Below, in pieces: positions 8,993 through 60,922 of a stretch of 64,000 nt of DNA. A program made the translations under genes and the position numbers. Position 1 is the first letter of the stretch. Every line of letters starts with the position of its first letter. The DNA comes from Candidatus Moraniibacteriota bacterium (lineage in GTDB: Bacteria > Patescibacteriota > Minisyncoccia > Moranbacterales > GCA-2747515): positions 418,474 to 482,473 of the forward strand of contig CP065011.1 in NCBI GenBank assembly GCA_016699795.1, written 5' to 3'. The notes beneath the pieces were generated by a model. That model saw only the letters and a list, made by a program, of their open reading frames with translations, was not told where the DNA came from and searched no databases.

Positions 8993-9565
8993 ATGATTTT
9001 TTTATTTTCAAAAAAATATTCCGACCAAGAACTTCTTGAAATTTTCCCTGAAGCCAAAACGATAATACCCGAAAAGATTTCAGAATGGCAGGAGGAGTAT
9101 GACAAATTGGCAAATGAGATTAAGGGATTTTTGACCGCCGTCTATGAGCGTTGCCCCGAAAAGGATGTGTGGTTCTGGGAAATAGTCGCGGAAAAACTGA
9201 TGATTCCCGACCTGCTGAAAATAGAGAATCACATCTTACGCCTAAAAAGGCAACAGATAATTGCAAAGGGCAAAAGCAACAGACGCCAAGAAAATTACGA
9301 AAAGTTCCAAGAGAAAATTATACTTGCTCGATCCTATCCAATCTACGAACTGGCGCGTGACAAACTCGATCTCAAACCGTCTGGGAAAAACTTTGTGGCG
9401 TTGTGTCCCTTCCACAATGAAAAAACTCCCAGCTGCTATTTCTACACAGAGACCAATACCTTTGTATGTTTCGGATGCGGAGAAAAGAGCGACATTATAA
9501 AATTTACAATGCATTTTTACGGAGTCGGATTCCGAGACGCCGTAGAGATGCTTCAAGCAAGATGA
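8993..9565 (+). CDS. CHC2 zinc-finger (DnaG-type primase Zn-binding domain) protein
   Basis: 'CPFHNEKTPSCYFYTETNTFVCFGCGEKSDIIKF' matches the C-x-H...C-x2-C primase zinc finger. Its stop TGA overlaps the next ATG (ATGA). Confidence 0.6.
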   Translation: MIFLFSKKYSDQELLEIFPEAKTIIPEKISEWQEEYDKLANEIKGFLTAVYERCPEKDVWFWEIVAEKLMIPDLLKIENHILRLKRQQIIAKGKSNRRQENYEKFQEKIILARSYPIYELARDKLDLKPSGKNFVALCPFHNEKTPSCYFYTETNTFVCFGCGEKSDIIKFTMHFYGVGFRDAVEMLQAR

Positions 9566-10917
9566 GTGGTAAAGCAAATAACAAATTAAACGAGATAAAA
9601 AACAATATGGAGAAAGAAAAAAATGTGTCGCACGACGCCAAGAAACAACAGTCTAGGGAGAATGAACGATTCGCAAAATTGATCCCAGAGGTACCGACTG
9701 ACATAGCACTCTGGCGAGAAGTTATCACGGAAAATTTTCCCGAATTGATACTTCCGGCCGAAGTAGGCTTAAGCATAATCGCCCAACTGCTGATAGGCGA
9801 TATCAAAAATCCGTTTGCCCTCGTCTATGTGGATGTTCCATCTTCTGGAAAAACCGTCGTTTTGAATTTCTTTTCCACCGCCAAAGAACTGGCATTTACG
9901 ACTGACAATTTCACCCCGGCGTCGTTTGTATCTCAAGCCGCAAAAAAGAAAAAGGAGGAACTGGCCGAAATCGACATGTTGCCACAGATCAGGTACAAGA
10001 CATTGATTATCCGGGATCTTGCCCCCGTATTTAGCAAGAAAGACGAAAATGTCCAAGAAATGCTCGGGATATTAATCAGAGTTCTGGACGGAGAAGGTCT
10101 GGAAACAAGCGGTGGCATACACGGCAAGCGCGGATATACCGGAGACTACCTGTTTATGTTGCTTTCTGCCTCTACCCCAATCCGCCCTAGGATATGGAAA
10201 GCTATGGGGAACCTGGGGTCGCGTTTGTTTTTCGTCAATATCGGAGGCGCCGAGAAAAGCGAAACCGCCCTAGCAAACCAGTTAAAGAAGCCTTGCCGGG
10301 AAAAAGAAATTTTATGCCGGGAAGTTACTGAAAACTTTGCAAAAACTTTGTGGAGCAAATATCCCGACGGAGTCCTTTGGGATATGGAAAAAGACGAGCA
10401 GAGCTTGTTGGAAATCATTGCTCGTCTTGCCAAAATACTGGCACGCCTCAGAAGTTCTATCAATGTTTGGAAAGACAGCAACGAATCCAAAAAGTATGAC
10501 CACACTCAACCGATTACAGAAATGCCAGACAGGCTGAATCAGCTCCTTTACAATTTGGCTAGAGGTCATGCCATTGTTTGTGGCCGAGAAAATATCACCA
10601 AGGAAGATCTTAGCATCGTAATGCGAGTTGCGCTTGATTCTGCTCCACCCAACCGAGCAAGAGTGTTTAAGAATCTCATAAAATCATCGGGTGTGCTTGC
10701 AACAAACCAAGTCATGGATATTCTCAAATGTTCCCGTCCAACAGCGCTGAAAGAAATGGAGCAACTTGTTATCCTGGGAATTGTCGAACCGTCTGAAGAT
10801 TTGGCTGAAGCAAGCAGTTTGCATTTCACAGGCAGACCGGAAAGCGAGATCGCGCTCAAAGAAGAATTCAAATGGTTTCTGACCAATGAATGCCATTTAT
10901 TGATACATAGGAGCTAA
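9562..10917 (+). CDS. P-loop NTPase, primase-associated/replicative helicase-like protein of a mobile element
   Basis: Walker A 'DVPSSGKTVV', Walker B-like 'LIIRDLAP', C-terminal winged-helix-like segment. Start moved to the ATG at 9562, which overlaps the upstream stop (translational coupling). The longer ORF from 9466 overlaps the previous gene. Confidence 0.5.
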   Translation: MSGKANNKLNEIKNNMEKEKNVSHDAKKQQSRENERFAKLIPEVPTDIALWREVITENFPELILPAEVGLSIIAQLLIGDIKNPFALVYVDVPSSGKTVVLNFFSTAKELAFTTDNFTPASFVSQAAKKKKEELAEIDMLPQIRYKTLIIRDLAPVFSKKDENVQEMLGILIRVLDGEGLETSGGIHGKRGYTGDYLFMLLSASTPIRPRIWKAMGNLGSRLFFVNIGGAEKSETALANQLKKPCREKEILCREVTENFAKTLWSKYPDGVLWDMEKDEQSLLEIIARLAKILARLRSSINVWKDSNESKKYDHTQPITEMPDRLNQLLYNLARGHAIVCGRENITKEDLSIVMRVALDSAPPNRARVFKNLIKSSGVLATNQVMDILKCSRPTALKEMEQLVILGIVEPSEDLAEASSLHFTGRPESEIALKEEFKWFLTNECHLLIHRS

Positions 10918-10966
10918 AAGGGTTTATAAACCAAATTTACCCCTATGTTATAAACCGATAATTACT

Positions 10967-11128
10967 ATGATTACCGAATCAGACGCTAAAAAATTTCAGG
11001 AACTATACGAAAAAGAAACCGGAAAGAAAATCTCTCTCAAGGAGGCTTTTGAACTGGCAGAAAATTTGGTGGACATGGTTCGGCTTATCTACAAGCCCAT
11101 TAAAAAGAAGGACCGCAAAGATTGTTAG
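10967..11128 (+). CDS. Small ORF (53 aa), hypothetical
   Basis: Read manually; 'MITESDAKKFQELYEKETGKKISLKEAFELAENLVDMVRLIYKPIKKKDRKDC'. It sits between the helicase-like gene and the recombinase. Below the 60-aa cut-off of the ORF track. Confidence 0.25.
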   Translation: MITESDAKKFQELYEKETGKKISLKEAFELAENLVDMVRLIYKPIKKKDRKDC

Positions 11129-11187
11129 AATTTTCAATGTCGCTATACAATCTGCATAGACAGTAACGTGCACAAATTGAAACCATT

Positions 11188-12795
11188 ATGGAGGCCAAAA
11201 TAAAGTATCTAATGTATCTTCGCAAAAGCACCGATAGCGAAGATCGCCAGATACAATCAATCGAAGATCAACGCAAGGAACTGGAACGCATCGCCAGACA
11301 TCTTAAACTTGAAATTAAGGGAGTTTACCATGAAAACAAATCCGCCAAGAAGCCTGGGCGGGAGGAATTTAACAAGATGCTTAAAGAGATAAGACGAGGC
11401 AAGGCCGGCGGAATTCTTTGTTGGAAAATTAACCGCCTAACCAGAAATCCGATAGACAGCGGCGAAATCCAATACATGCTGCAGCTTGGACTGATACAGT
11501 CGATCCAAACGCCGGGCAGAGAATACAAAACGACTGACAATGTATTGATGATGTCGGTCGAGACGGGAATGGCCAACCAGTACATCATTGACCTGGGCAG
11601 GGATGTTAAGCGCGGCATGGCTTCCAAAGCCGAGAAAGGTTGGCGGCCAGGACTCGTGCCGATTGGATACAAGAACGACAAGGCGGGAGAACAAGGAAGC
11701 AAAGTCATCCACGTCGATGAAGAACGCTTCCCGATTGTCCGCCAGATGTGGGATCTTATGTTGACTGGCGATTATTCGGTTTCCAAGATTGTTGACATTG
11801 CCAACAACGAGTGGGGTTTGAGAAAACCCACGCGCAATATAGACATGAAGCTCCACGAAAGCCACGGGTACAAAATTTTCACGAACCATTTTTATTACGG
11901 GGAATATGAGTGGGTCGGCAAGACATATCAAGGCAAGCACACGCCAATGATAACGCGAGCTGAATTTGATTATGTCCAGAAGCTCCTGGGGATCAAATGC
12001 AAATCACAGACACGCCACAAAAACCTTCCTTACCGTGGCACAATCCGCTGTGGCGAGTGCGGATGCTCTATCACGACCGAGCAGAAAATAAAAAGAATCA
12101 AATCCAAGAATATCATCAAGACTTTTGTTTACCACCACTGCACCAAAAAGAAATTGGACACCGATTGCCGACAGAAACCCGTATCTTTCGAAGAAATCAA
12201 CAGACAAGTCATGGAAGAGCTGGACAAAATAACCTTGCCCGAGAGTTTTCTGGCTTTTGCTTTGAAGATTTTGAACCGGGACAATGAACTTGAGGTCGAC
12301 AATCGCAACATCATGGTTAAAAACCAGCAGAAAGCCCTGAAAGACTGCCAGAACAAGATTGATAACCTGCTGAAAATCTATATTTCACTCAACAACTCCG
12401 ACAAGGATCTGATAAGCGACGAGGAATTCAAGGGCCAGAAGTCGTCCTTGCTTAAAGAGAAGGCCGGGATCGAACAGAATTTGAACAATCTACGCCAACG
12501 AGCAGACGAATGGTTAGAACTGACCGAAAAAACTTTCACATTCGCTGTCTACGCAAAACATAATTTCGCTGAGGGAGATTACGAAACCAAGACCAGGATA
12601 TTGCGTGCCTTAGGTTCGGACTGCGTCTTGAAAGACAGAAAGGTCCATATTACCTTGCGCAAACAATATCAGATCATCAAAGAAGGCACGGAAATGATAA
12701 AGGCTCAAAACCCAGGGTTAGAACTGAATGATTTTGCTTTATCTGAAACAAAAACAGCCCAATATGGGGCCGTTTCTGATGTCTTGAGCGGGTGA
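11188..12795 (+). CDS. Large serine recombinase (resolvase/invertase-type N-terminal catalytic domain, recombinase domain, zinc ribbon)
   Basis: 'YLRKSTDSEDRQ' is the Y-x-R-x-S-T...Q catalytic serine motif. 'CGECGCSIT' is a zinc ribbon. 535 aa. Its last 9 nt overlap the 3' end of tRNA-Gly. Confidence 0.85.
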   Translation: MEAKIKYLMYLRKSTDSEDRQIQSIEDQRKELERIARHLKLEIKGVYHENKSAKKPGREEFNKMLKEIRRGKAGGILCWKINRLTRNPIDSGEIQYMLQLGLIQSIQTPGREYKTTDNVLMMSVETGMANQYIIDLGRDVKRGMASKAEKGWRPGLVPIGYKNDKAGEQGSKVIHVDEERFPIVRQMWDLMLTGDYSVSKIVDIANNEWGLRKPTRNIDMKLHESHGYKIFTNHFYYGEYEWVGKTYQGKHTPMITRAEFDYVQKLLGIKCKSQTRHKNLPYRGTIRCGECGCSITTEQKIKRIKSKNIIKTFVYHHCTKKKLDTDCRQKPVSFEEINRQVMEELDKITLPESFLAFALKILNRDNELEVDNRNIMVKNQQKALKDCQNKIDNLLKIYISLNNSDKDLISDEEFKGQKSSLLKEKAGIEQNLNNLRQRADEWLELTEKTFTFAVYAKHNFAEGDYETKTRILRALGSDCVLKDRKVHITLRKQYQIIKEGTEMIKAQNPGLELNDFALSETKTAQYGAVSDVLSG

Positions 12796-12859
12796 GCGGA
12801 ATCGAACCGCCGTCCTTAGCTTGGAAGGCTAATATAATAAACCATTATACGACACCCGC
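12787..12859 (-). tRNA. tRNA-Gly (anticodon UCC), no encoded CCA
   Basis: Manual fold: acceptor GCGGGTG/CACCCGC, anticodon stem TTAGC/GCTAA with loop CTTCCAA, T-arm GGCGG-TTCGATT-CCGCT. The weak D-stem is AT-rich. Confidence 0.75.
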
Positions 12860-33615: not shown

Positions 33616-33853
33616 AATTTTAATTTTTATTCTCTTTTAGTAAGAAAGACATTAAGTATTATATCCTATATTCATCATCTTTACAAAAAAATATTTCCGA
33701 GACAAAAAAAGATGAAAAATAGAGAAAATAAAGTGCTTGCAAAAAGAAAAAAAATCATCTACAAAAAGAAGAGAATGTTTTTATTTTTCAAAAAACTTTA
33801 TAAAAAATAAAATGTTCTGAAATATTTTATTTATATTTTTAGAAAATATTCAA

Positions 33854-33943
33854 GGAGAGATGCTAGAGTGGTCGAATAGGACAGTCTCGAAAACTGTTGT
33901 ATCGGAAACGGTACCGTGGGTTCGAATCCCACTCTCTCCGCCA
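33854..33943 (+). tRNA. tRNA-Ser (anticodon CGA), long variable arm, CCA encoded
   Basis: Acceptor GGAGAGA/TCTCTCC+G+CCA, anticodon stem ACAGT/ACTGT with loop CTCGAAA, T-arm GTGGG-TTCGAAT-CCCAC. Confidence 0.85.
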
Positions 33944-35449
33944 AAATTGGAAATCGGAATCAGAAGCCGAAATGGGGTCGGCGCGAAGCGCCGACGCAAA
34001 CGCATTCCCGCCAAAAATTCCCGAATTCAAAAGGTTTTTCCACGCTCCGCGTGGCTCAAAAAAGACGGTTCGATCCTTAATTTGAAAGTTCGAACCGACT
34101 TTTTTAAACAAATGAAGAAATTCTTCATTTGTTTTCTCGTTAGCCAATTCCACCATATAAATATTGGCTTTTAGAAGATTTTCGGTAAGTTCGAACCGAT
34201 TATTGGATTTTTTCTCAAAAGCCGATAATTTCTCTTTTAAAAGTTGTTTTTGATTCACTAACTTATTTTTAGAATCACGATATTCTTCCAAAGACAGAAC
34301 ATTTTCTAAATATAAGTTCATCAACTTTTCAACTTTTGAATCCAAAAGAGAAATTTCATCTTTTGTTTTTTGAGAAAAAATCTCACTCGATTGATTTTCT
34401 GATTGTCGGTTTTTCTCATTTTCGACAATCATCCAATTTGCCCAATCGAGTGGCAAAGAAACTTTTTTGATACTTTCTGCAATTTGAGAAGTGATGAGTT
34501 CTTCGCGAACATATTTTTGCAAGCAAGGATTTTTCCGTTTGGTACATCGCAAATAATTATGACCTTTTTGGGTTTCAGTGGTAATGAAACAACCACATTC
34601 TCCACAACGGAAAAATCCTCTATACAAAAATGGTTTCAGTCCTTTGGAGTGAGGTTTAGATTTCCTCATCATCACTTCTTGAACGGAATCAAAAAGTTTC
34701 TTTGTGATAATCGGTTCGTGCTTACCCTCAAAAATCTCTCCGTTATACCTCATTAAACCCGTATAGATAGGATTTTTGAGGATTTGCTGATAGTTCGACA
34801 CCGCAAGTTCCTTTCCGCTTTTTCGCTTCAATCCAAGTCCGTTAAATTTGTCGCGGAGTTGTCGCAAAGTGAAAGACCCAGACGAATATGCCTCAAATGT
34901 CTTTTTAATCAGTTTAGCAATTTCAATATCGGGAATGATTCCAGCACCTTTCACATTTACATATCCGAGCGGAGACATTTGAGGCCATATTCCGTCTTTC
35001 ACTTTGTTGCGATGACCTCGTTTGATATTTTCTGACAAGTTATCTACATAATACTTGGATTGCGAAAAAGCGATTGAGAGCATGAACTTGCCTTGCGGTG
35101 TCGGATCACACCAGAAAGTTGGAAATTTTAGCTCGGCAATTTTGCCCGTATCGAGCAAGTAAATAACTTTTCCACCATCAACACTATTTCTCGCTAATCT
35201 GTCGGGATGCCACGCCAAAATTCCATTTGCTTCACCTTGCTCGATACGGAGAAGCATTTCATTAAATACTGGCCGACCCGGAGATTTTGCAGTTTGTTTT
35301 TCTACAAAAATATCAACGACATCAATATCCTCTTTTATCGCCAATAGTTTGAGTTCGGCCAGTTGATCCGAAATGCTTCTCACTTGCCGATCTTCGGTGT
35401 CGATTGATTTGCGAGTATAGATAAAAAACTTTCTGGTGTGATTATTCAT
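33863..35449 (-). CDS. Large serine recombinase (C-terminus uncertain: ORF reads through flanking repeat and tRNA-Ser)
   Basis: 'YTRKSIDTEDRQ' catalytic motif, 'CGECGCFIT' zinc ribbon. Paralogous to 11188-12795. The last ~60 codons are translated repeat/tRNA sequence ('EWDSNPRY'), so the true stop is probably lost or lies near 34100. Confidence 0.75.
   Translation of the reverse strand: MNNHTRKFFIYTRKSIDTEDRQVRSISDQLAELKLLAIKEDIDVVDIFVEKQTAKSPGRPVFNEMLLRIEQGEANGILAWHPDRLARNSVDGGKVIYLLDTGKIAELKFPTFWCDPTPQGKFMLSIAFSQSKYYVDNLSENIKRGHRNKVKDGIWPQMSPLGYVNVKGAGIIPDIEIAKLIKKTFEAYSSGSFTLRQLRDKFNGLGLKRKSGKELAVSNYQQILKNPIYTGLMRYNGEIFEGKHEPIITKKLFDSVQEVMMRKSKPHSKGLKPFLYRGFFRCGECGCFITTETQKGHNYLRCTKRKNPCLQKYVREELITSQIAESIKKVSLPLDWANWMIVENEKNRQSENQSSEIFSQKTKDEISLLDSKVEKLMNLYLENVLSLEEYRDSKNKLVNQKQLLKEKLSAFEKKSNNRFELTENLLKANIYMVELANEKTNEEFLHLFKKVGSNFQIKDRTVFFEPRGAWKNLLNSGIFGGNAFASALRADPISASDSDFQFWRREWDSNPRYRFRYNSFRDCPIRPL
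34057..34105. terminator. Long near-perfect palindrome (16-bp stem) with A6/T6 flanks; likely terminator/true 3' end of recombinase gene
   Basis: aaaaaagacggttcga ... tcgaaccgactttttt. Confidence 0.45.
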
Positions 35450-35586
35450 AAAATTGTATTGGCAAACGAGGAGCCACGCGGAGCGTGGCGAATCCTTGCA
35501 GAATCAGGATTTTGTGGGGGGAATGCAGAACAGACGGCGCTTCGCGCCGACCATATTTTTGGTTCTGAAACCCTTTTCGAAAAATT

Positions 35587-35945
35587 GCGGTATTCATTGT
35601 ACAAAATTCGAACCTTTTTTGAAACCAATCCCGATGAGGAATGAATCGCCCCGCCACCGCCTCGCAGAGCCTCGGCAACCCCGAAAGAAAAAACACTCCT
35701 TGCATTTCTGATTTGGCGGGGGTGAATTTTCTTTTGAAAAAGGAAAGGGTGTTTTTCTTTCGGGGTTCTGCCCTCCAAGTATTCGGGCAGTGTGGCGGGA
35801 CGAAATGCGGACTCGGTTTTGCCAAAACTATTTTCTGGGGGAAAGGATTTGGCAAAACCTCGACTGAATTTCCCGCCCGCAGGAGGGGTCTGGGGAGGAA
35901 TGCGGGCGGGTTTCGGACTGGGGGTTTTTGGAAATTCGGCGGCTA
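35587..35945. repeat. Left copy of perfect ~359-bp inverted repeat (GC-rich, multi-hairpin, apparently non-coding)
   Basis: It is the reverse-complement of 39017-39375. The 98-120-aa ORFs on both strands have identical translations at the two loci and are low-complexity. Internal hairpins include ccccgaaagaaaaaacac/gtgtttttctttcgggg, ggttttgccaa/ttggcaaaacc and cccgcccgca/tgcgggcggg. Confidence 0.85.
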
Positions 35946-36043
35946 CAAAATCAGAAAATTCAGATTGAATAAATCTATAATTTTTGCTATCATTGTTTTG
36001 TGAGCAAAGAAAGAATCTTCTCATAAGATAATACTATCAAAGT

Positions 36044-36250
36044 TTGGATACTATGGCAACTATATCAGAAAACATAAAACGAATACGAACAAAACAAGGA
36101 TTGACGCAAGACGACTTGGCGAAGAAAGCGGACATCAAATACTCTACCCTTACAAAAATTGAGGGTGGTGTTGTTACAAAACCAAGTGTTCAAACAATCC
36201 AAAAAATCGCCAAGTCGTTGGGCGTTCCTATGGAGGAAATTTTGAAATAA
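36044..36250 (+). CDS. XRE-family helix-turn-helix transcriptional regulator
   Basis: 'IKRIRTKQGLTQDDLAKKADIKYSTLTKIEGG' is a canonical HTH_XRE sequence. 68 aa. Confidence 0.8.
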   Translation: MDTMATISENIKRIRTKQGLTQDDLAKKADIKYSTLTKIEGGVVTKPSVQTIQKIAKSLGVPMEEILK

Positions 36251-36251
36251 T

Positions 36252-37097
36252 ATGGATAATCAAGAAGAACAAAATAATATAGAAGTGCAACCTGATTTGT
36301 ATCTTGAATCACCAAAGGCTTTTCATCTTGAAATGCCTCCTTACCACAATTTTGATTTGTCCACTAAAGCTATTTCAAGAGCCATATATGAAATTTTAAG
36401 TAACAGATCAACTATTGATGCTTATTGTATTTGGTGCGGAAAAGAAGGCGTGTTTAGGGCATACAACTATCTATCTGATAATGTTTCTGTTCCTCCCTGG
36501 ACAAAAAGAAATAATGGATTGATAGAAATAGAGTATCGTTGCACTCGTAACGAATCCCATGCTTACCACACTTATTATTTTAAGGCGGGTGATTTTTTTA
36601 CAAAAGTTGGACAGTTTCCATCTGTTGCTGATTTTCAAATACCTCAAGTTGAGTCGTATCGAAAAATTCTTGACGAAGAACAATATAAGGAATTTACACG
36701 CGGGATCGGTCTATCCGCTCATGGCGTAGGTATCGGTTCATTCGTGTATCTTCGCCGTGTTTTTGAAAATCTTATTGAAGAAGCTCATAATAAAGCAAAG
36801 GCGGAAGACGAATCGTTCTCGGACGAAGCATATATACGAGCAAGAATGGATGACAAAATTGAAATGGTAAAAGAATATTTACCAGAATTCCTTGTCGAAA
36901 ATCGCTCATTATATGCAATTTTGAGTAAAGGTATTCATGCCCTAGGCGAAGATGAGTGTTTGCAATATTTCGAAACAGTGAAAATCGGAATTGAGCAAAT
37001 TCTTGACGAAAAAATTATTGCTAAAGAAAAAGCAGAAAAAGCCGCTTCTGCTCGTGCCGCAATTCAGAAAACACATGGCAAAATAAATGGAGTATAA
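36252..37097 (+). CDS. Hypothetical protein paired with XRE regulator (possible Abi/HEPN-like effector, unassigned)
   Basis: 281 aa. It starts 2 nt after the XRE stop. A CxxC pair lies near the N-terminus. No confident domain assignment. Confidence 0.5.
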   Translation: MDNQEEQNNIEVQPDLYLESPKAFHLEMPPYHNFDLSTKAISRAIYEILSNRSTIDAYCIWCGKEGVFRAYNYLSDNVSVPPWTKRNNGLIEIEYRCTRNESHAYHTYYFKAGDFFTKVGQFPSVADFQIPQVESYRKILDEEQYKEFTRGIGLSAHGVGIGSFVYLRRVFENLIEEAHNKAKAEDESFSDEAYIRARMDDKIEMVKEYLPEFLVENRSLYAILSKGIHALGEDECLQYFETVKIGIEQILDEKIIAKEKAEKAASARAAIQKTHGKINGV

Positions 37098-37102
37098 AAC
37101 TT

Positions 37103-37690
37103 ATGGAAATAAACAGACCAAAATCTAAACAACCGATTCCCGATAACGCCAAAAAGGTTTTTGCTGGAGTGCTTTTTGATGTCTATCAATGGGAGCAAGA
37201 ACTTTTTGACGGAACAAAAACTCTTTTTGAAAAACTGAAACGCCCTGATACCGTTGTCGTTTTTCCAGTTTTAGATGACGGGAAAATTATACTTACAGAA
37301 CAAGAACAACCCGGCAAAGAACCTTTTATCGGGGCGACTGGCGGGAGAGTTGATAAGGGCGAAGATATTTTGGAAGCGGCGAAACGCGAACTTCTTGAAG
37401 AAAGTGGTTACGAAGCATCAGAGTTTGTCCTTTGGGACGCCCAACACCCGACATCAAAAATTGATTGGGTTGTTTATACTTTTATCGCCAAAGGGCTTAA
37501 AAAAGTTTCTGAAATGAATCTCGATGCTGGCGAAAAAATCACTCTAAAGTTAGTTGATCTCGATGAGTTTATTGAAATTGCATTAAATAAAAATTTTGTT
37601 GAAAAGGAAATAATTCCAAAACTTTACGAGGCGAAACTTTACCCAGAAAAGAATGAAGAACTTAAAAAGTTATTTAACCCAAAATTTTAA
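37103..37690 (+). CDS. NUDIX hydrolase
   Basis: Nudix box 'GGRVDKGEDILEAAKRELLEESGY' (GX5EX7REUXEEXGU). Confidence 0.8.
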   Translation: MEINRPKSKQPIPDNAKKVFAGVLFDVYQWEQELFDGTKTLFEKLKRPDTVVVFPVLDDGKIILTEQEQPGKEPFIGATGGRVDKGEDILEAAKRELLEESGYEASEFVLWDAQHPTSKIDWVVYTFIAKGLKKVSEMNLDAGEKITLKLVDLDEFIEIALNKNFVEKEIIPKLYEAKLYPEKNEELKKLFNPKF

Positions 37691-37693
37691 TTT

Positions 37694-38086
37694 ATGAAAA
37701 CAATTTTAGTTGATGCCGTAGATGCGTTTGTTGTAGAAACCGAAAATGGTTTCGAGATTTTTGAGCCAGTGCAAAAAATGCTCAACGAGTTTCCAAACAC
37801 CAAAATAATTCTTACTGGTGCGAATGATGAACAGTTTAAGAAATTTGGTCTGGATAAAATGCCATATGAAGTTTTTACACTAAAACACGACCCTGAAAAA
37901 ACCAACTCCGAGTATTACAAAAAAATGCTTGAGCATTTTAACTTTAAGCCGGAAGATGTTGTTTATTTTGAGCACAACCCTGAAGCAGTAAAAAGTGCTC
38001 AATCAGTCGGTATCAAAACTCATTTTTGGGACAACGAGAAAAGACCATTGAGAGAGTTGAGTATTTTCTTGGAAAACAGCATTTAA
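37694..38086 (+). CDS. Small HAD-like hydrolase (putative phosphatase/nucleotidase)
   Basis: 'MKTILVDAVDAFV' is motif-I-like; 'KIILTGAND' and 'VVYFEHNPEAV' are also HAD-like. The assignment is tentative. Confidence 0.45.
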   Translation: MKTILVDAVDAFVVETENGFEIFEPVQKMLNEFPNTKIILTGANDEQFKKFGLDKMPYEVFTLKHDPEKTNSEYYKKMLEHFNFKPEDVVYFEHNPEAVKSAQSVGIKTHFWDNEKRPLRELSIFLENSI

Positions 38087-38089
38087 TAT

Positions 38090-39019
38090 ATGAAACCAAT
38101 CCTCGTAACTTGTTATGTAAATCCCGACCTCGACGGCGTTGCTGGCGCAATCGCCTACGGCGAATTTTTACAGAAAACTGGCAAAAATACTGTCGTAGGG
38201 ATTATTGGCGAACCACACGACGAAGCGAAGTATATTTTAGATTGCTTTGGCTTTGAATATCCGCCAATGATAGAAAACGCGGATAATTTCGATGAAGTGA
38301 TACTCGTGGATGCAAGCGACCTCAATGGACTTGAGGGAAAAATATCTGCCGAAAAAGTCATCGAAATTATCGACCACAGAAAAGTCCATGAGGCGGATAA
38401 ATTTCCCAATGCCAAAGCGCAAATTGAGCTTGTTGGTGCGGCCGCTACTCTTGTCGCAGAAAAATTTATGCAAAACAAAGTTGATATATCGAAAGAATCA
38501 GCAACACTTGTTTACGGAGCAATAATTTCCAATACCCTCAATTTCAAGGGAAGCGTTACCACTGACCGCGACAAAGTAGCAGCCGAATGGCTCAATAAGG
38601 TTGCGAAATTGCCCGAAGATTTTTGGAAAGATTTGTTTATCGTAAAATCAGATTTATCAGGCAATAAACTTACAGAAAGAATAGAGGGCGATTTCGCATG
38701 GTTTGTTATGGGCGACAAAAAAGTTGGTATCGCCCAAGTTGAAATGATTGGTGCTAAAAAACTTGTAGACAAAAGAAGTAGCGAGATTGTTCAAGTGTTA
38801 GATAAAATCAAAAAAGAGATGGGCCTAGATTTTATCTTCCAAAATACAATCGAGCTTGAAGATACAAAAAACTTTTTTGTCGCTCAAGATTCCGAAACAC
38901 AAAAACTTTTGGAAAAAGTTTTGAAAGTTCAATTTGCTGGCGTAGTCGCGGAGCGACCAAATCTGATTATGCGCAAGCAAATTGTTCCTTTGTTGAAGGA
39001 TGAGTTAGAATTGAAATAG
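38090..39019 (+). CDS. DHH-family phosphoesterase (NrnA/PpaC-like)
   Basis: 'ILVTCYVNPDLDGVAGAIAYGEFL', 'VILVDASD', 'IIDHRKV' are DHH motifs I-III. Its stop TAG lies inside the right inverted repeat. Confidence 0.7.
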   Translation: MKPILVTCYVNPDLDGVAGAIAYGEFLQKTGKNTVVGIIGEPHDEAKYILDCFGFEYPPMIENADNFDEVILVDASDLNGLEGKISAEKVIEIIDHRKVHEADKFPNAKAQIELVGAAATLVAEKFMQNKVDISKESATLVYGAIISNTLNFKGSVTTDRDKVAAEWLNKVAKLPEDFWKDLFIVKSDLSGNKLTERIEGDFAWFVMGDKKVGIAQVEMIGAKKLVDKRSSEIVQVLDKIKKEMGLDFIFQNTIELEDTKNFFVAQDSETQKLLEKVLKVQFAGVVAERPNLIMRKQIVPLLKDELELK

Positions 39020-39375
39020 CCGCCGAATTTCCAAAAACCCCCAGTCCGAAACCCGCCCGCATTCCTCCCCAGACCCCTCCTGCGGGCGGGAAATTCAGTC
39101 GAGGTTTTGCCAAATCCTTTCCCCCAGAAAATAGTTTTGGCAAAACCGAGTCCGCATTTCGTCCCGCCACACTGCCCGAATACTTGGAGGGCAGAACCCC
39201 GAAAGAAAAACACCCTTTCCTTTTTCAAAAGAAAATTCACCCCCGCCAAATCAGAAATGCAAGGAGTGTTTTTTCTTTCGGGGTTGCCGAGGCTCTGCGA
39301 GGCGGTGGCGGGGCGATTCATTCCTCATCGGGATTGGTTTCAAAAAAGGTTCGAATTTTGTACAATGAATACCGC
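39017..39375. repeat. Right copy of perfect ~359-bp inverted repeat
   Basis: Reverse-complement identical to 35587-35945 over the whole length compared. Confidence 0.85.
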
Positions 39376-39399
39376 TATAGAGTTTTTTCCAATATGGGA

Positions 39400-39690
39400 T
39401 TAATTTCCCGTATTGGAGAAAATATTGTGAAAAATCAAAGGGATTCGAACGGGTAGGAGCGAGTCCTCGAGTATCGATGGATGCGAATAAATGAGCATTC
39501 AGCGCTACCCAGGACAACGAACTCCCATTTTGGGAGTGAGGCGAAAATCCCACTCTGGGCAGTGAACGAAGTGAATGAGGAAGAGAAAGAAAGCAAAGAG
39601 TTTTGCTTTCTTTGGAATGAGAAGGGACTTGCGAAGCGACAAAAGTCACCGAAAGTCCCCGGCCCGAAGGGGAATCTCTCTCTTACTTAA
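39400..39690. other. GC-rich structured non-coding arm of the tRNA-Ser element
   Basis: No credible ORF. Contains 'GGGATTCGAACGGG', reminiscent of the tmRNA tRNA-like domain, and a 'GAAAGTCCCCGGCCCGAAGGGG' hairpin. Related sequence recurs in the mini-element after tRNA-Pro(CGG). Confidence 0.35.
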
Positions 39691-39727
39691 AAAAAACTCT
39701 CATGCCCTAATTCATGAGAGTTTTTTA
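39689..39727. terminator. Bidirectional terminator (ctctcatg...catgagag with A8/T7 flanks)
   Basis: 8-bp stem with an A-run before and a T-run after. It lies downstream of the minus-strand gene 39755-41947 and at the right edge of the tRNA-Ser element. Confidence 0.6.
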
Positions 39728-39754
39728 TTTCCTATACTTTCGAAGTAGAATTAT

Positions 39755-41947
39755 CTACATCGATTCGCATGACATATATTTTTCTATAGAACCATCTGCA
39801 GCAAGAAGTGTTCCTATCATAAATCTTCGATATCCATTTGCACATTCTGCCACACCATTGTAATCGGGGCACGAAATTGGGAACTGTAAAGTCTCTCCTC
39901 TTGGCCCCGTGCATGAACGAATAGATCCGTTCGAATTTTGAACCACAACAGCATACCCATAAAGTCCGCCCTTACGAGGACTCGTAAAAGATCCTGATAT
40001 TGACTCGCATGAATAATATCTAGACGTAAAACTTTCTGTTATTGAACCTGTTCCAATGCGACGAAAACCACTCTCACAAATAGGTATATTATCCCCTCCA
40101 CAAGTCATTGGAGAAGATGCTCCGCAACCAACAGCATTGCCTTGTTGCATAGTAACTATACCAACGCCATATAATTTTCCTTTTTCTTTTATCGCTGGAT
40201 ATGAGTTTGTATTTGCTTTGCACGTATACACCGTGTACGCTCCCCCGGCATCGGGCACACTTCCGATTTTTGACAAATAGAAACCTCTTTCACAGACTGG
40301 CTGCTCCAAATTATTGCATGAAATGGGATCGATCGTTTCTCCATCCCAAATATCACCTGCAGGCTTAGGTCCTTTACAATAGTCATTTCTTACCATTACA
40401 GCACCGAAAAGTGATTCGGAATCATAGGGTCCTCTGTAAGAAGGTTGATCTTTTAAGATTTGAGCTATCTGAGCATTTGAAGAAGATTTATCTGAACCTT
40501 TATCTACCAACTTCACATACGTTCTTTTTCCATACGGATAGGAATTATTACCACTCTTCCATGTCCACGTTAGTAAATCTTTTTGTCTAATATCTTCATC
40601 AAGATATAATTGTCGCACTGCATAAAATTCACTTTGGTTATACGTGACTTGAAAAGAGTTCATTGAGAGACTGCCCTTATCTTGATAGATATCATTTCTC
40701 ATATCAACGACAGTTGAAAGTGCCCACACATCTTTTCCGTATTGAGCTGCAAGTTTTCTCACAACTTTATTAACAAGGCGGTGTTGTTCATGACCATATT
40801 CACCCCAATTATTATGCGTCACAATGCGCTTTGTGGTACTCGCACTCATAATTGGTTTTAATTTAGCTTCAAGAACACTAGCGGAAACAAGTGATTGTCG
40901 AGAGATTGGATTTGTTTTGTATTGAGCTATGTACGTTGAAACATCCGTTCTTCCATAAATCGTTTCCCATTTCTGGCTATAGTTATAAGGGGTTTTATTT
41001 ACAATATTTTCAAAAGGAGGTGTTGCTGGATATGCAGAAAGTACAAATTTTTGAGCTACCTTAAAAAATGGAAACATCCAGAGTAAATCATCATCTTGAT
41101 GGGCAAAAATAAGCACAGTGCCTCCATCTGAAAATTCTGCTGGCAAAGTAGGATCTCCTCCTCTCGAACCCTTAAACGTAGCTGTTACATTACGAGATTG
41201 TGTGAGAGATACAGAACACGTTTTACTTGTTCCTCTACAATCCCCTGTCCATCCTTCAAAAGTATTTCCACTTTGAGGTGAAGCTGTGAGTGTAACCTTT
41301 GTATTTTGAGGTAATGTTTTTGAACATGTTGTACCACAATTAATTCCAGAAGGATTTGATACTATTGTTCCTGCTCCAGTACCAGCTTTTGCTACAGTAA
41401 GAGTTTGTTGTCCTTGTTGTGTAGAACAGTTAATTTTCTTTGGTGAACCACTAATGACATTGTTTGGTCCTCCAGAAATATCAATAGCATGAATGTATAT
41501 ATTCTTTTCACCTTGATTACGGAATGAGGAAGGAAGTTTACAGTCAAAGCCATGAGTTCCACTAATACCATAACCTTTGTTTATATCAGGTCTGGAAACT
41601 TTTGTTTGACATCCTGCTATAAATTTTCCTCCTTTACCATAAGGAGCTCCTTCATAAAAATGAACCCAGATAGATGTTCTGGAGTTATCAGGATCATAGG
41701 CCCAACCTTTTACACTACAAGTATTGGAGTCAGGACCATCAAAAGCTCCTATAGCAGGTTTAGCACTTGCAGCATCTGAAAATGGTAAATCAAAAGAAAT
41801 TCCTGAGAAGATATCCCTTGTTGTTGCTTTTTGAATAAGAAGAATACTTCCAAGAAAAAAGCTTATGACAAGAAGAAGAGAAATGATTTGTATTTTAGAA
41901 TCTTTTTTTTGTTTTTTTTTGTTTTTTTTTGTTTTTTTTGAAAACAT
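39755..41947 (-). CDS. Secreted/membrane-anchored multi-domain protein: InlB B-repeat-like domain + LmbE/PIG-L-like deacetylase domain + Cys-rich C-terminal region
   Basis: N-terminal Lys-rich segment plus TM. 'LTVAKAGTGAGTIVSNPSGINCGTTCSKTL...GNTFEGWTGDCRG...CSVSLTQSRNVTATF' is a divergent InlB B-repeat. 'VLIFAHQDDDLLW' matches AHPDDE and 'HNNWGEYGHEQH' matches HxDH of LmbE/PIG-L. Confidence 0.65.
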   Translation of the reverse strand: MFSKKTKKNKKKQKKDSKIQIISLLLVISFFLGSILLIQKATTRDIFSGISFDLPFSDAASAKPAIGAFDGPDSNTCSVKGWAYDPDNSRTSIWVHFYEGAPYGKGGKFIAGCQTKVSRPDINKGYGISGTHGFDCKLPSSFRNQGEKNIYIHAIDISGGPNNVISGSPKKINCSTQQGQQTLTVAKAGTGAGTIVSNPSGINCGTTCSKTLPQNTKVTLTASPQSGNTFEGWTGDCRGTSKTCSVSLTQSRNVTATFKGSRGGDPTLPAEFSDGGTVLIFAHQDDDLLWMFPFFKVAQKFVLSAYPATPPFENIVNKTPYNYSQKWETIYGRTDVSTYIAQYKTNPISRQSLVSASVLEAKLKPIMSASTTKRIVTHNNWGEYGHEQHRLVNKVVRKLAAQYGKDVWALSTVVDMRNDIYQDKGSLSMNSFQVTYNQSEFYAVRQLYLDEDIRQKDLLTWTWKSGNNSYPYGKRTYVKLVDKGSDKSSSNAQIAQILKDQPSYRGPYDSESLFGAVMVRNDYCKGPKPAGDIWDGETIDPISCNNLEQPVCERGFYLSKIGSVPDAGGAYTVYTCKANTNSYPAIKEKGKLYGVGIVTMQQGNAVGCGASSPMTCGGDNIPICESGFRRIGTGSITESFTSRYYSCESISGSFTSPRKGGLYGYAVVVQNSNGSIRSCTGPRGETLQFPISCPDYNGVAECANGYRRFMIGTLLAADGSIEKYMSCESM
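41903..41939. repeat. Four homopolymeric T8-9 tracts separated by G (A8-9 on coding strand) within first 15 codons of 39755-41947
   Basis: tcttttttttgtttttttttgtttttttttgttttttttg encodes KKTKKNKKKQKK. Confidence 0.8.
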
Positions 41948-59789: not shown

Positions 59790-59874
59790 GCCCAGGTGGC
59801 GGAACCCGGTATACGCGCTAGCTTGAGGTGCTAGTTCTCGCAAGGGATTGGAGGTTCAAATCCTCTCCTGGGCA
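59790..59874 (+). tRNA. tRNA-Leu (anticodon GAG), long variable arm
   Basis: Acceptor GCCCAGG/CCTGGGC, anticodon stem CTAGC/GCTAG with loop TTGAGGT, T-arm GGAGG-TTCAAAT-CCTCT. Confidence 0.75.
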
Positions 59875-60033
59875 CACCAAGGAAGTACGTCAACTACTTG
59901 ACGTATGTGAGGATTTGAAAGCCGGAGCGATGTGCGAAGCACCGCGAGGCGGGGTCGAAAGATTTTCTTTGAAAAAAGAAAATACTTGTGACCAAATCCT
60001 CTCCTGGGCACACCAAGGAAGTATGTAAGGAGA
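59875..60033 (+). mobile_element. Miniature element inserted at tRNA-Leu(GAG) 3' end: 115-nt insert bounded by perfect 31-nt direct repeat
   Basis: 'caaatcctctcctgggcacaccaaggaagta' at 59857-59887 recurs at 60003-60033. The intervening 'gaaagccggagcgatgtgcgaagcaccgcgaggcggggtcgaaagatttt...gaaaatacttgtgac' is shared with the element after tRNA-Val. Confidence 0.5.
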
Positions 60034-60113
60034 GATTGAAAGTCAAAGCGTTGTGTGCAAAAGATATAAAGGTTGATCCGGAAGAGAAAAGGAGTATACT
60101 ATAAAATATATAT

Positions 60114-60187
60114 GCGTGCTTAGCTCAGTTGGCTAGAGCATCTCGTTTACACCGAGAGGGTCAGGGGTTCGAGTCCCTTAGCACGCA
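60114..60187 (+). tRNA. tRNA-Val (anticodon UAC)
   Basis: Acceptor GCGTGCT/AGCACGC, D-arm GCTC/GAGC, anticodon stem TCTCG/CGAGA with loop TTTACAC, T-arm AGGGG-TTCGAGT-CCCTT. Confidence 0.85.
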
Positions 60188-60376
60188 CAACAAACATCGT
60201 GAGTTTTGTGTGTTATGTACGCCAACTGCTTGGCGTACATAGGGACGAGAAAGCCGGAGTAAAGTGTGAGTTTTCCCTGAATCTTCGAAGGGAAAGGCAA
60301 ACACCACGAGGCGGGGTCGAAAGATTTTTCCGTCAGGAAAAATACTTGTGACCGAGTCTCTCGATAAGTACACAAT
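60188..60376 (+). mobile_element. Miniature tRNA-Val 3'-end-associated element with degenerate tRNA 3'-end copy
   Basis: The internal 'gaaagccggagtaaagtgtga...accacgaggcggggtcgaaagatttttcc...gaaaaatacttgtgacc' is homologous to the tRNA-Leu mini-element. The terminal 'gagtctctcgataagtacacaat' resembles the tRNA-Val 3' end 'gagtcccttagcacgcacaac'. Confidence 0.35.
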
Positions 60377-60566
60377 TTTTATCAATCATAAAAAATCGCC
60401 TTAAAGCGGTTTTTATTTTTGACCATTAAAAAATAAACAGGAGATTCTCCCCTTCTATCGCTTCGCACGTGCCTTTGACACAGACTACGCATCTCCTCCA
60501 GAGCCGGGGTTTTCAAAACGTGAAGCAGTTCACGTTTTGAAATACCCTTCGATTCCCCTCGTTTTT

Positions 60567-60608
60567 ACACCTACCTAAATACAAAAGACCCCATATGGGG
60601 TCTTTTGT
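60567..60608. terminator. Perfect 20-bp palindrome (cctaaatacaaaagacccca/tggggtcttttgtatttagg), bidirectional terminator candidate
   Basis: It lies immediately 3' of the minus-strand tRNA-Gly(GCC). Confidence 0.45.
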
Positions 60609-60680
60609 ATTTAGGTGAGCGAGAGACGGGAATCGAACCCGCGACCTATTCCTTGGCAAGGAATCGTTCTACCATTGAAC
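60609..60680 (-). tRNA. tRNA-Gly (anticodon GCC)
   Basis: Reverse-complement GCGAGAG...anticodon stem ATTCC/GGAAT with loop TTGCCAA...T-arm GCGGG-TTCGATT-CCCGT...CTCTCGC. Confidence 0.85.
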
Positions 60681-60750
60681 CACTCTCGCATCTTTATTTA
60701 TTTTTTGAAAAATACCCTCAGACAGCATATCCCGAAAATTTCCTCTTCAG

Positions 60751-60823
<73 letters not shown>

Positions 60824-60850
60824 TTCTTTTTTATTATTTTCGCTCTAACG

Positions 60851-60922
60851 TGCCTGGGGTGAGAATCGGACTCACGACACAAGGATTTTCAGTCCTTTGC
60901 TCTACCACTGAGCTACCCAGGC
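60851..60922 (-). tRNA. tRNA-Phe (anticodon GAA)
   Basis: Reverse-complement GCCTGGG, D-arm GCTC/GAGC, anticodon stem AAGGA/TCCTT with loop CTGAAAA, T-arm GTGAG-TCCGATT-CTCAC, acceptor CCCAGGC. Confidence 0.85.

Follow-up and report, generated by a model that had tools for sequence, protein, structure and literature searches.

The locus behind tRNA-Ser(CGA)

Here we analysed a 64,000-nt stretch of DNA from a Candidatus Moraniibacteriota bacterium (contig CP065011.1 of assembly GCA_016699795.1, positions 418,474-482,473; the window, in what follows, is this whole stretch) and compared part of it with related loci on other contigs, labelled L001 and so on. Our subject is a conserved segment of 5.43 kb (approximately 33942-39375) that begins directly behind a tRNA-Ser(CGA) gene and contains a large serine recombinase gene and a cargo module, each lying between inverted repeats, and that we discuss as a putative mobile element. 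Its features, with the attachment sites named as for serine integrases (attB in the host, attP in the element, attL and attR at the two junctions), are the following:

33854..33943 (+), host tRNA-Ser(CGA), found by ARAGORN and Rfam; its 3' end, from the T-loop to the acceptor end, would be the B half-site of attB
33863..35449 (-), open reading frame (ORF) of the large serine recombinase, 528 aa, convergent with the tRNA-Ser gene (Pfam); the conserved protein covers 34037-35449
33938..33941 (+), putative attL crossover region, the CCGC of the tRNA 3' end; conservation between loci begins just past it
33942..34057 (+), arm a of inverted repeat IR-A (repeat search; 53% GC), holding a P' half-site (about 33942-33976), hairpin 1 (33977-33995), hairpin 2 (34040-34054) and the final conserved codons of the recombinase
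35471..35586 (+), arm a' of IR-A, 74% complementary to arm a, with a P' half-site of a different sequence class
35560..35612 (-), internal attP-like junction (P, CCGC and P'), inverted relative to attL and attR; core GCGG at 35587-35590
35587..35945 (+), arm b of inverted repeat IR-B, 100% identical to the reverse complement of 39017-39375; its outer end is a P half-site
35946..39016 (+), cargo module, 3071 nt (ORFs and Pfam)
39017..39375 (+), arm b' of IR-B, ending in a P half-site and the putative attR crossover CCGC (39372-39375)
39376..39690 (no strand), host-side flank (B' and beyond), 315 nt, GC-richer and highly structured, with no homolog in related loci
39691..39726 (no strand), bidirectional terminator-like hairpin, shared with a convergent host gene of 730 aa (39755..41947, -)

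An earlier note, made from the letters of this DNA alone, had placed the tRNA-Ser gene where ARAGORN and Rfam now find it, and had called the gene convergent with it a large serine recombinase, in agreement with the Pfam domains of its product: Resolvase (PF00239, residues 9-154, E = 1.6e-17), Recombinase (PF07508, 178-260) and Zn_ribbon_recom (PF13408, 275-327). The translation contains the serine nucleophile motif YTRKS..DRQ, residues 207-445 align weakly with the C-terminal domain of the A118/LI integrase (4kis/6dnw), and there is a distant match to the SPbeta integrase. In large serine integrases, directionality is controlled by a coiled-coil motif that interrupts the zinc ribbon domain; by eye, a long heptad-like stretch can be seen at about residues 340-440 of the present protein, and it aligns with the second recombinase of the window (11188..12795). 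The proposal that these two recombinases are paralogs holds, although they must be considered distant ones because they are only 30% identical over 492 aa (E = 2e-71). Their alignment stops at residue 471, beyond which the ORF runs through the GC-rich arm a and then antisense into the tRNA, and for this reason the last ~57 codons are probably a fortuitous tail.

The perfect inverted repeats that had been predicted around the cargo cassette are present (IR-B), and we found in addition a repeat that the earlier note did not contain, IR-A, which flanks the recombinase gene (33947-34057 and 35471-35581, 74% complementary). IR-B was first called as 362 nt with one mismatch, at 35586/39376; because the mismatch sits at the outermost bases, the true repeat is 359 nt long and 100% identical, around 3071 nt of cargo. 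Throughout the family the IR-A arms lie at +1380..+1500 from the recombinase start and are 97-100% alike in most loci, and IR-B was found in 57 of the 89 loci with at least 1.2 kb of upstream sequence, with arms of 89-423 nt (median 204 nt) that are 99.5% identical. The window's IR-B arms exceed the family median because of an extra hairpin module of ~150 nt (35648-35800 and 39162-39314), which also occurs in L012, L024 and L070; these arms are modular mosaics. The jump to GC-rich sequence that had been described directly after the tRNA is real for the repeat arms (53% in a and a', 51.5% in b and b'), but not for the recombinase gene and the cargo, which with 37% each resemble the window (36%); segment 39376-39690 has 45%.

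Hairpin 1 has kept its stem between loci through double changes (GC to CG and GC to AU, or the reverse) at three pairs, with one break in 126 cells, and could act as a terminator of the recombinase gene that shields the tRNA, or as a palindromic protein-binding site. Three sites resemble promoters by consensus match only: one in arm b, 35623 to 35596 (-), aimed at the recombinase gene; its twin in b', 39339-39366 (+), aimed outward from the element; and a third upstream of the XRE gene of the cargo (35965-35993). Rfam found only tRNAs in the window at the gathering threshold, in 33700-39900 with E values up to 5, and in six related loci, and because of this the GC-rich arms and segment 39376-39690 do not represent a described RNA family. 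A tmRNA in the window was ruled out by ARAGORN.

Family conservation and attachment sites

Relatives of the recombinase are numerous, with more than 7000 homologs, the best 120 of which are 78-92% identical and 482-625 aa long. A collection with one genome per species gave 290 stretches with a relative (the best 80 being 81-91% identical), and metagenomes gave at least 510 stretches encoding one. The records of the one-genome-per-species collection bear the labels Paceibacterota, Nomurabacteria, Saccharibacteria, Levyibacteriota, Uhrbacteria, Moraniibacteriota, Kaiserbacteria, Zambryskibacteria, Peribacteria and others, and a few bins bear labels from outside the candidate phyla radiation (CPR), all labels being as deposited. 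Recombinase identities of at least 80% over many CPR classes argue for a recent and broad horizontal spread. A viral collection contained no close relative, and a viral origin of the element was rejected, the best match there being 25-26% identical. Approximately 165 related loci show a conserved architecture, in which tRNA-Ser is joined to arm a, recombinase gene and arm a', these to arm b, the XRE gene with further cargo and arm b', and these in turn to host DNA. The loci were gathered via the recombinase. Dozens of them have the same recombinase at the same distance from tRNA-Ser while differing in cargo and having unrelated far flanks.

On the left side, ARAGORN placed a convergent tRNA-Ser gene 97 or 99 nt past codon 470 of the recombinase in 63 of the first 84 loci, with two exceptions at 80 and 241 nt, and a junction of the tRNA type downstream of the recombinase was recognised by sequence pattern in 119 loci of the full set. 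The target genes carry the anticodons gga, tga, cga, gct and act. In the 63 aligned loci the 3' strand of the acceptor stem co-varies with the 5' strand host by host (for example GGAGAGA...TCTCTCC or GGAGGGG...CCCCTCC), and sequence shared between loci starts directly past ...CCGC. Because the acceptor strands co-vary and conservation of the element begins only after CCGC, the whole tRNA is host DNA, with the crossover at its extreme 3' end; no duplication of the tRNA is needed or made at this junction.

Some further observations concern the targets. Genes for tRNA-Ser with the anticodon ACT, which is unusual among bacteria, were reported by ARAGORN in L013, L027, L056, L057, L058 and L070, often beside tRNA-Ser(GCT), with which they form a divergent pair in L056, L057, L058 and L070, and these ACT genes are attachment sites as well. 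In L129 (4220-4411) a recombinase of the same family lies at tRNA-Asp(gtc), a target outside the tRNA-Ser genes but with the acceptor end in common, its 3' end likewise reading ...CGCTCCGCCA / CTCCGCCA. In L026, L073 and L155 arm a is joined to a sequence other than a tRNA, ending in ...CCCGAGTACACCGC or similar and related among the three, which may be a pseudo-attB or another structured element of the host.

On the right side, the far arm of IR-B, read in the direction of the tRNA, ends in ...GGTTCGAA(N15)CCGC, and in all 33 loci compared this is the outer end of repeat b. What lies beyond attR is unrelated between loci (host genes, intergenic DNA and once a tRNA-Val), and the position-specific information on the B' side is about zero. 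The third junction is found inside the segment, where the inner IR-B arm abuts the upstream IR-A arm and so brings a P arm and a P' arm together; on the minus strand it reads GGTTCGAATTTTGTACAATGAATACCGC|AATTTTTCGAAAAGGGTTTCAGAACC, continuing as GGTTCGAATTTTGTACAATGAATACCGC|AATTTTTCGAAAAGGG..., and the same joint of a' and b stands upstream of the recombinase gene in about 90 loci. Since P plus P' is exactly what recombination of attL with attR would regenerate, we interpret this joint as a probably intact second attP in inverted orientation. The sequence common to attL, attR and the internal attP is only CCGC (CCGCCA in some loci).

The strongest single argument for this assignment comes from comparison of the half-sites, whose reconstruction the earlier note had proposed as a check and which could be read from the aligned loci. 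Outward from the GC of CCGC, the consensus of the B half-site, that is of the tRNA, is GGAGaGGG.GaGATTCGAAC and that of the P half-site is GGTGTgTATTGGACAAAGTTCGAA. The motif TTCGAA occupies positions 14-19 in B (64 distinct arms) and positions 19-24 in P (40 + 18 distinct arms), so that the P arm looks like a shifted mimic of the T-loop and acceptor end of tRNA-Ser. In the LI integrase system the motif recognised by the zinc ribbon domain lies at positions 16-24 in attP and 11-19 in attB, and this 5-bp shift underlies discrimination between the sites (Rutherford et al., PMC3783163). Because TTCGAA stands 5 bp further out in P, the joint of b and a is assigned to attP and the tRNA end to attB. 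The catalytic domain, the recombinase and zinc ribbon domains and the 5-bp shift of the half-sites are thus all found here as in large serine integrases.

Taking the domain architecture, the junctions, the half-site mimicry, the variable cargo and the rare isomers described below together, all of them read from sequence comparison, we consider it likely (with a probability of about 0.8) that positions ~33942-39375 represent an integrated, non-viral mobile element of the serine-integrase type, belonging to a family that has spread through Patescibacteria (CPR). In the mechanism that we propose, the integrase would recombine the attP of the element with an attB formed by the 3' end of a tRNA-Ser gene, whatever its anticodon. 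The crossover would fall inside CCGC, which comprises the acceptor end together with the discriminator base and the initial C of CCA, and with a crossover there the tRNA would stay intact and nothing would be duplicated. The stretch from TTCGAA to CCGC in T-loop and acceptor would act as the B half-site, copied by the P half-site with TTCGAA 5 bp further out. The recombinase module would be bounded by inverted P' arms (a, ~120 nt) and the cargo module, with the XRE gene first, by inverted P arms (b, 359 nt in the window), and the excised circle would accordingly consist of two unique segments and two inverted repeats a+b, each with an attP at its a|b joint. Once one attP had been used for integration, its halves would lie in attL (tRNA|a) and attR (b'|host), whereas the other would remain intact between the recombinase gene and the cargo; either module could then flip without altering any type of junction, and the spare attP could engage a second tRNA-Ser gene. 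The empty attB expected from this scheme would read, from the tRNA outward, ...CTCTCCGC|TATAGAGTTTTTTCC.

Several observations weigh against this interpretation. In about 97% of the loci the 3' end of the recombinase gene is next to the tRNA, whereas equivalent attP copies predict both orientations, and a genome with further tRNA-Ser genes should be at risk from an integrase gene and an attP that are both intact and lie side by side. The repeats, at 120-420 nt, far exceed the ~50 bp that a site needs, and their near-identity within elements is unaccounted for. The P' half-site mirrors P only loosely and falls into about five sequence classes; a central dinucleotide containing the G of CCGC (CG or GC) would be palindromic, which usually abolishes control of orientation. 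The copy in the window is a mosaic, since its a arms are only 74% alike and belong to different sequence classes, and positions 35471-35560 of arm a' are 100% identical to the downstream arm of L004. Excision by serine integrases needs a recombination directionality factor, and we recognised none, the sole other conserved gene of the family being the 65-aa XRE helix-turn-helix (HTH) gene; to our knowledge such factors have no common signature.

The mobile forms themselves were also looked for. BLAST comparison of the flanks of 34 complete elements with all loci returned only orthologous occupied sites, as in L020 and L089, and the loci included neither a contig with terminal overlaps nor an excised circle. 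The empty tRNA-Ser site or circular form that the earlier note had suggested seeking in relatives was hence not seen, and as no circle, circular contig or empty site was found, mobility is inferred from comparison only. An exact-sequence look-up gave no record for the recombinase and the 730-aa flank protein, and for the methyltransferase and DHH proteins it matched only short Logan contigs of SRR11674012, which yielded no alternative strain or empty site.

Isomers, flanking repeats and rival explanations

Rare arrangements bear on what the second attP might do. In L009 and L021 the recombinase module is flipped, so that tRNA-Ser is followed by a', the recombinase gene, a and then b, and in L057 tRNA-Ser is joined to a' while the downstream junction lies past the contig end. 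In L017 (9770-11600) the recombinase module alone (a', recombinase gene, a) stands between two convergent tRNA-Ser genes (gga and gct), an arrangement to be expected from two attP x attB events or from inversion of the chromosome between tRNA-Ser genes. Two of 37 loci (L050 and L102) have their cargo flipped, and arrays in which recombinase modules alternate with cargo modules, with a|b at the joints, occur in L119 (1-7200, including a decayed second recombinase copy), L048 (3500-11600) and L070 (3000-14400). No clean cargo-only unit was found in this recombinase-collected set, the apparent cases being tandem arrays or misses of the search pattern. The rare isomers suggest a usable second attP or a flipping of modules. 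A more ambitious reading, which we hold only tentatively, is that of a natural cassette system with two attP sites, in which one integrase could integrate the whole unit at any tRNA-Ser gene, flip either of its modules, place single modules between the 3' ends of two tRNA-Ser genes (compare L017) and invert or reshuffle the chromosome between tRNA-Ser genes; engineered cassette exchange with dual attachment sites has the same design. Apart from these isomers, the sequence beyond attR in L015 is an inverted host gene that in L007 and L020 adjoins the 5' side of tRNA-Ser(gga) (68-70% nucleotide identity), and its placement could be a chance change of synteny or an inversion with its end-point at the element.

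A different extent was proposed in the earlier note, according to which the element would run from the tRNA to ~39686/39727 (~5.7 kb) and end, just before the terminator, in a degenerate copy of the tRNA 3' end as a direct repeat. Parts of this description stand: segment 39376-39690 is indeed structured (z = -7.1 on the plus and -5.8 on the minus strand) and GC-richer, the hairpin at 39691-39726 has the form of a bidirectional terminator, and the promoter-like site in b' reads into the segment, which the terminator follows. The string named as the repeat, ggaatctctctcttac (39671-39686), does share 10 of 12 positions with the tRNA 3' end, but the match is weak, its local score of 14 being reached by 3.1% of genomic 31-nt windows and 3.4% of shuffles (p ~0.03), and at 296 nt outside the element end it is not attR.

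Nearer to the element the window contains exact 11-mers of the tRNA T-loop, inverted, at 39440-39450 (+61 from attR) and of the tRNA 3' end, direct, at 39546-39556 (+167), whereas of random 352-nt segments only 1.2% contain a single match of this kind. Among 35 complete loci, 7-8 show the host's own tRNA-Ser 3' end as an inverted copy 41-79 nt past attR and as a direct copy 134-189 nt past it; the direct copies, present in 7 of the 35, measure 16-19 nt in six loci and, in the window, 11 nt, as against 2.8% (at least 11 nt) and 1.4% (at least 14 nt) for direct copies in controls with mismatched tRNA and flank (1.4-7.4% overall). The 11-mers of the window thus stand at offsets that match other loci, though not at the string that had been named.

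Against the longer extent, family conservation stops at 39372-39375, and because segment 39376-39690 has no counterpart in ~160 related loci it is not part of the conserved element; in ~75-80% of complete loci plain host genes follow attR directly. The combination of tRNA 3' end and partial repeat had been taken as the classic signature of integration, but this logic is that of tyrosine-integrase islands and finds no support here: with a tRNA that is wholly host DNA, neither split nor restored, there is no displaced fragment to explain. Moreover, serine integrases exchange at a 2-bp core and produce no long direct repeats (PMC3783163). We consequently regard the longer extent as improbable.

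For the tRNA copies beyond attR the candidates are the remnant of an older island that targeted the T-loop, a scar left where aborted recombination was repaired, or a secondary landing pad; the reading with two attP sites would make them scars that its reactions left behind, or landing pads. A second element in L070 has attached at the direct copy. The module that carries the copies is also seen in the far flanks of L035, L050, L058, L070, L078 and L081, often with a terminator after the inverted copy; its two ends can pair in a stem of ~20 bp, and it belongs to no Rfam family. A tRNA-like or intron-containing tRNA gene in 39376-39690 was considered and finds no support in ARAGORN or Rfam, the T-arm-like motif being without a pairing partner.

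It is about equally improbable that the segment consists of two adjacent, independent units, that is, of a recombinase transposon resembling an insertion sequence, with terminal repeats of 120 nt (a), that would insert between sequences with ..CCGCCA at their ends, beside a separate cargo cassette whose tRNA-like terminal repeats (b) would provide one such end. Some large serine recombinases, such as TnpX and TndX, act as transposases; the recombinase module without an adjoining b arm stands between two tRNA-Ser genes in L017, and the a and b arms assort as mosaics, all of which would suit independent units. However, the end of b has TTCGAA 5 bp further out and is therefore a half-site of the P type, not an interchangeable target of the B type; the a|b joint is one fixed sequence in about 90 loci, as a single attP predicts, and in the set collected through the recombinase no cargo unit lies directly at tRNA-Ser without a recombinase unit between.

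Less probable still is a fixed, phase-variable segment in which the recombinase would do no more than invert the cassette and nothing would be mobile, as with Cin and Gin. The C segment of phage P1, with inverted repeats of ~0.6 kb, is inverted by Cin and the G segment of Mu by Gin, and the repeats encode alternative ends of tail fibres; Gin, Cin, Hin and Pin are small serine invertases of ~190 aa with a C-terminal HTH, and need an enhancer and Fis. As in P1 and Mu, the recombinase gene here adjoins a segment of ~3 kb with long inverted repeats and crossover sites at their outer ends, and both orientations exist between loci, the cargo being opposite in the two flipped loci and the recombinase module flipped in 3-4 loci. 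Unlike in P1 and Mu, the enzyme belongs to the large serine integrases (528 aa; it has a recombinase domain and a zinc ribbon, not a C-terminal HTH), the repeats are non-coding and structured, and the sites of the modules differ in their outer halves (P|P' as against P|B'). A fixed switch is also hard to reconcile with cargo that is wholly different between loci while the recombinase is 80-90% identical, and with the presence of the unit at tRNA-Ser genes of five anticodons and once at tRNA-Asp, in many CPR classes and between unrelated far flanks. Inversion may come on top of other activities and need not be all that the enzyme does.

That the inverted repeats are artefacts can practically be dismissed: perfect long inverted repeats can come from mis-assembly, and the contigs of many relatives stop 40-500 nt upstream of the recombinase gene, but the build with two repeats was seen in 57 assemblies that are independent of one another, come from various projects and assemblers and have arm sequences of their own, and in the independent Logan assembly of SRR11674012 contig L001 (3131 nt, window 35916-39046) comprises the cassette plus 30 nt on each side, breaking exactly k-1 = 30 nt inside both IR-B arms, as expected of a true inverted repeat in a k=31 graph.

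Known systems, cargo and other recombinases

The proposed element was compared with systems of known behaviour. Like the phage-type integrases (A118/LI, phiC31, Bxb1 and SPbeta SprA), it has the three-domain protein, a very short shared core and the 5-bp shift of the motif; unlike them, its family has no phage genes, measures 4-9 kb, targets the 3' end of tRNA genes, has an unconserved B' arm, carries two inverted attP sites in repeats of 120-420 nt and shows no recognisable directionality factor. SCCmec, the staphylococcal cassette chromosome, is moved by the large serine recombinases CcrAB, sits at the 3' end of rlmH/orfX, and has variable cargo and tandem or composite arrays. The present family resembles it as a non-viral island with variable cargo at the 3' end of a housekeeping gene that is left functional, and in arrays such as those of L119, L048 and L070; it differs in having one recombinase gene instead of ccrA and ccrB, a tRNA target and hosts of a different phylum, and we know of no SCC element with an internal second attP or with long inverted repeats flanking its modules.

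A likeness of another kind is offered by the yeast 2-micron plasmid, in which FLP, a tyrosine recombinase, acts on FRT sites within 599-bp inverted repeats, and which replicates, flipping serving to amplify its copy number. The circle that we propose would likewise have two unique segments, one encoding the recombinase, and two long inverted repeats bearing the target. It is a serine recombinase that is encoded here, however, the circle is deduced from sequence, and there are no replication functions of its own, no replication gene having been found in the window's cargo (by Pfam) or among the recurrent cargo families. The tRNA islands of tyrosine integrases and the tycheposons are similar in being small islands of cargo or defence genes at a tRNA gene and in having the integrase gene on the tRNA side, and differ in that here the tRNA is untouched host DNA and the recombinase a serine one. 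According to one account (PMC4383910), classical tRNA islands split the tRNA gene, restore it with the island's copy and leave the displaced fragment as a direct repeat. With regard to the features used by Islander, there is no tyrosine integrase, the tRNA is not split and no direct repeat is found at the element end, 39375, although direct copies of 11-19 nt lie beyond it in 7 of 35 loci. By its tested features the element thus belongs with the serine integrases and apart from both the classical tyrosine-type tRNA islands and the small invertase systems.

Full-text searches of the literature found no description of this element family, an absence there being no proof of novelty. As far as we found, a retained second attP inside long inverted repeats has not been described for serine-integrase elements, and the same holds for an attB at the tRNA-Ser 3' end that is recognised by way of a shifted tRNA mimic in attP, the modules bracketed by repeats and the CPR-wide spread at 80% identity or more. 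Patescibacteria make up a large share of bacterial diversity, few of their mobile elements have been characterised and genetic tools for them are almost absent. The integrase is compact (~470 functional residues) and its putative attP, ~55-60 bp at the b|a joint, can be read from the sequence; because attB is the 3' end of tRNA-Ser genes it should occur in several copies per genome, and the recent, broad spread would imply a wide host range. For these reasons the system is a direct candidate for an integration vector in CPR bacteria, and its unusual build with two attP sites might serve as a genetic tool for ultra-small bacteria that are hard to engineer. It also appears to be a natural and unusually clear case of the 5-bp spacing rule between attP and attB, in which the attP arm would have evolved as a shifted copy of a tRNA, and the second attP within long inverted repeats raises questions about flipping of modules, cassette exchange and genome rearrangement.

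The genes of the cargo module in the window are the following:

36053-36250 (+), gene of the XRE type with an HTH, 65 aa (ORF, Pfam)
36252-37097 (+), ORF of 281 aa, with no Pfam or PADLOC match
37103-37690 (+), NUDIX gene (Pfam)
37694-38086 (+), HAD-like gene (Pfam)
38090-39019 (+), DHH/DHHA2 gene (Pfam)

In the 57 loci with IR-B the cargo measures 1.5-6.4 kb, and the XRE gene is the only cargo gene common across the family, the remainder varying by locus. It is mostly of the defence type, with the restriction enzymes HpaII and HaeIII, C5 and N6 methylases, OLD-like AAA ATPases and HerA, and the family is probably a main shuttle of defence systems in these bacteria. On the window's own cargo PADLOC matched the XRE protein and, weakly, the NUDIX protein, and nothing else.

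Other serine recombinases were found beside tRNA genes. The recombinase at 11188..12795 belongs to a second island of the window (8993-12859, 42-46% GC against ~36% for the window), in which it is convergent with tRNA-Gly(tcc) (12786-12859), its stop codon lying within the tRNA 3' end and leaving no spacer; upstream of it are a zinc-finger protein of the CHC2 primase type (8993..9565) and an ORF of 483 aa. There are no long inverted repeats around this element, and the build with two repeats is therefore specific to the family of the recombinase studied here. In L003 (1551-3257) another large serine recombinase, of 568 aa, overlaps the 3' end of tRNA-Leu(gag) on the same contig, and on this account targeting of tRNA 3' ends by serine recombinases seems to be common in these genomes. 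Elsewhere in the window five tRNA genes (Leu-gag, Val-tac, Gly-gcc, Met-cat and Phe-gaa) lie on both strands within 1.2 kb (59790-60922).

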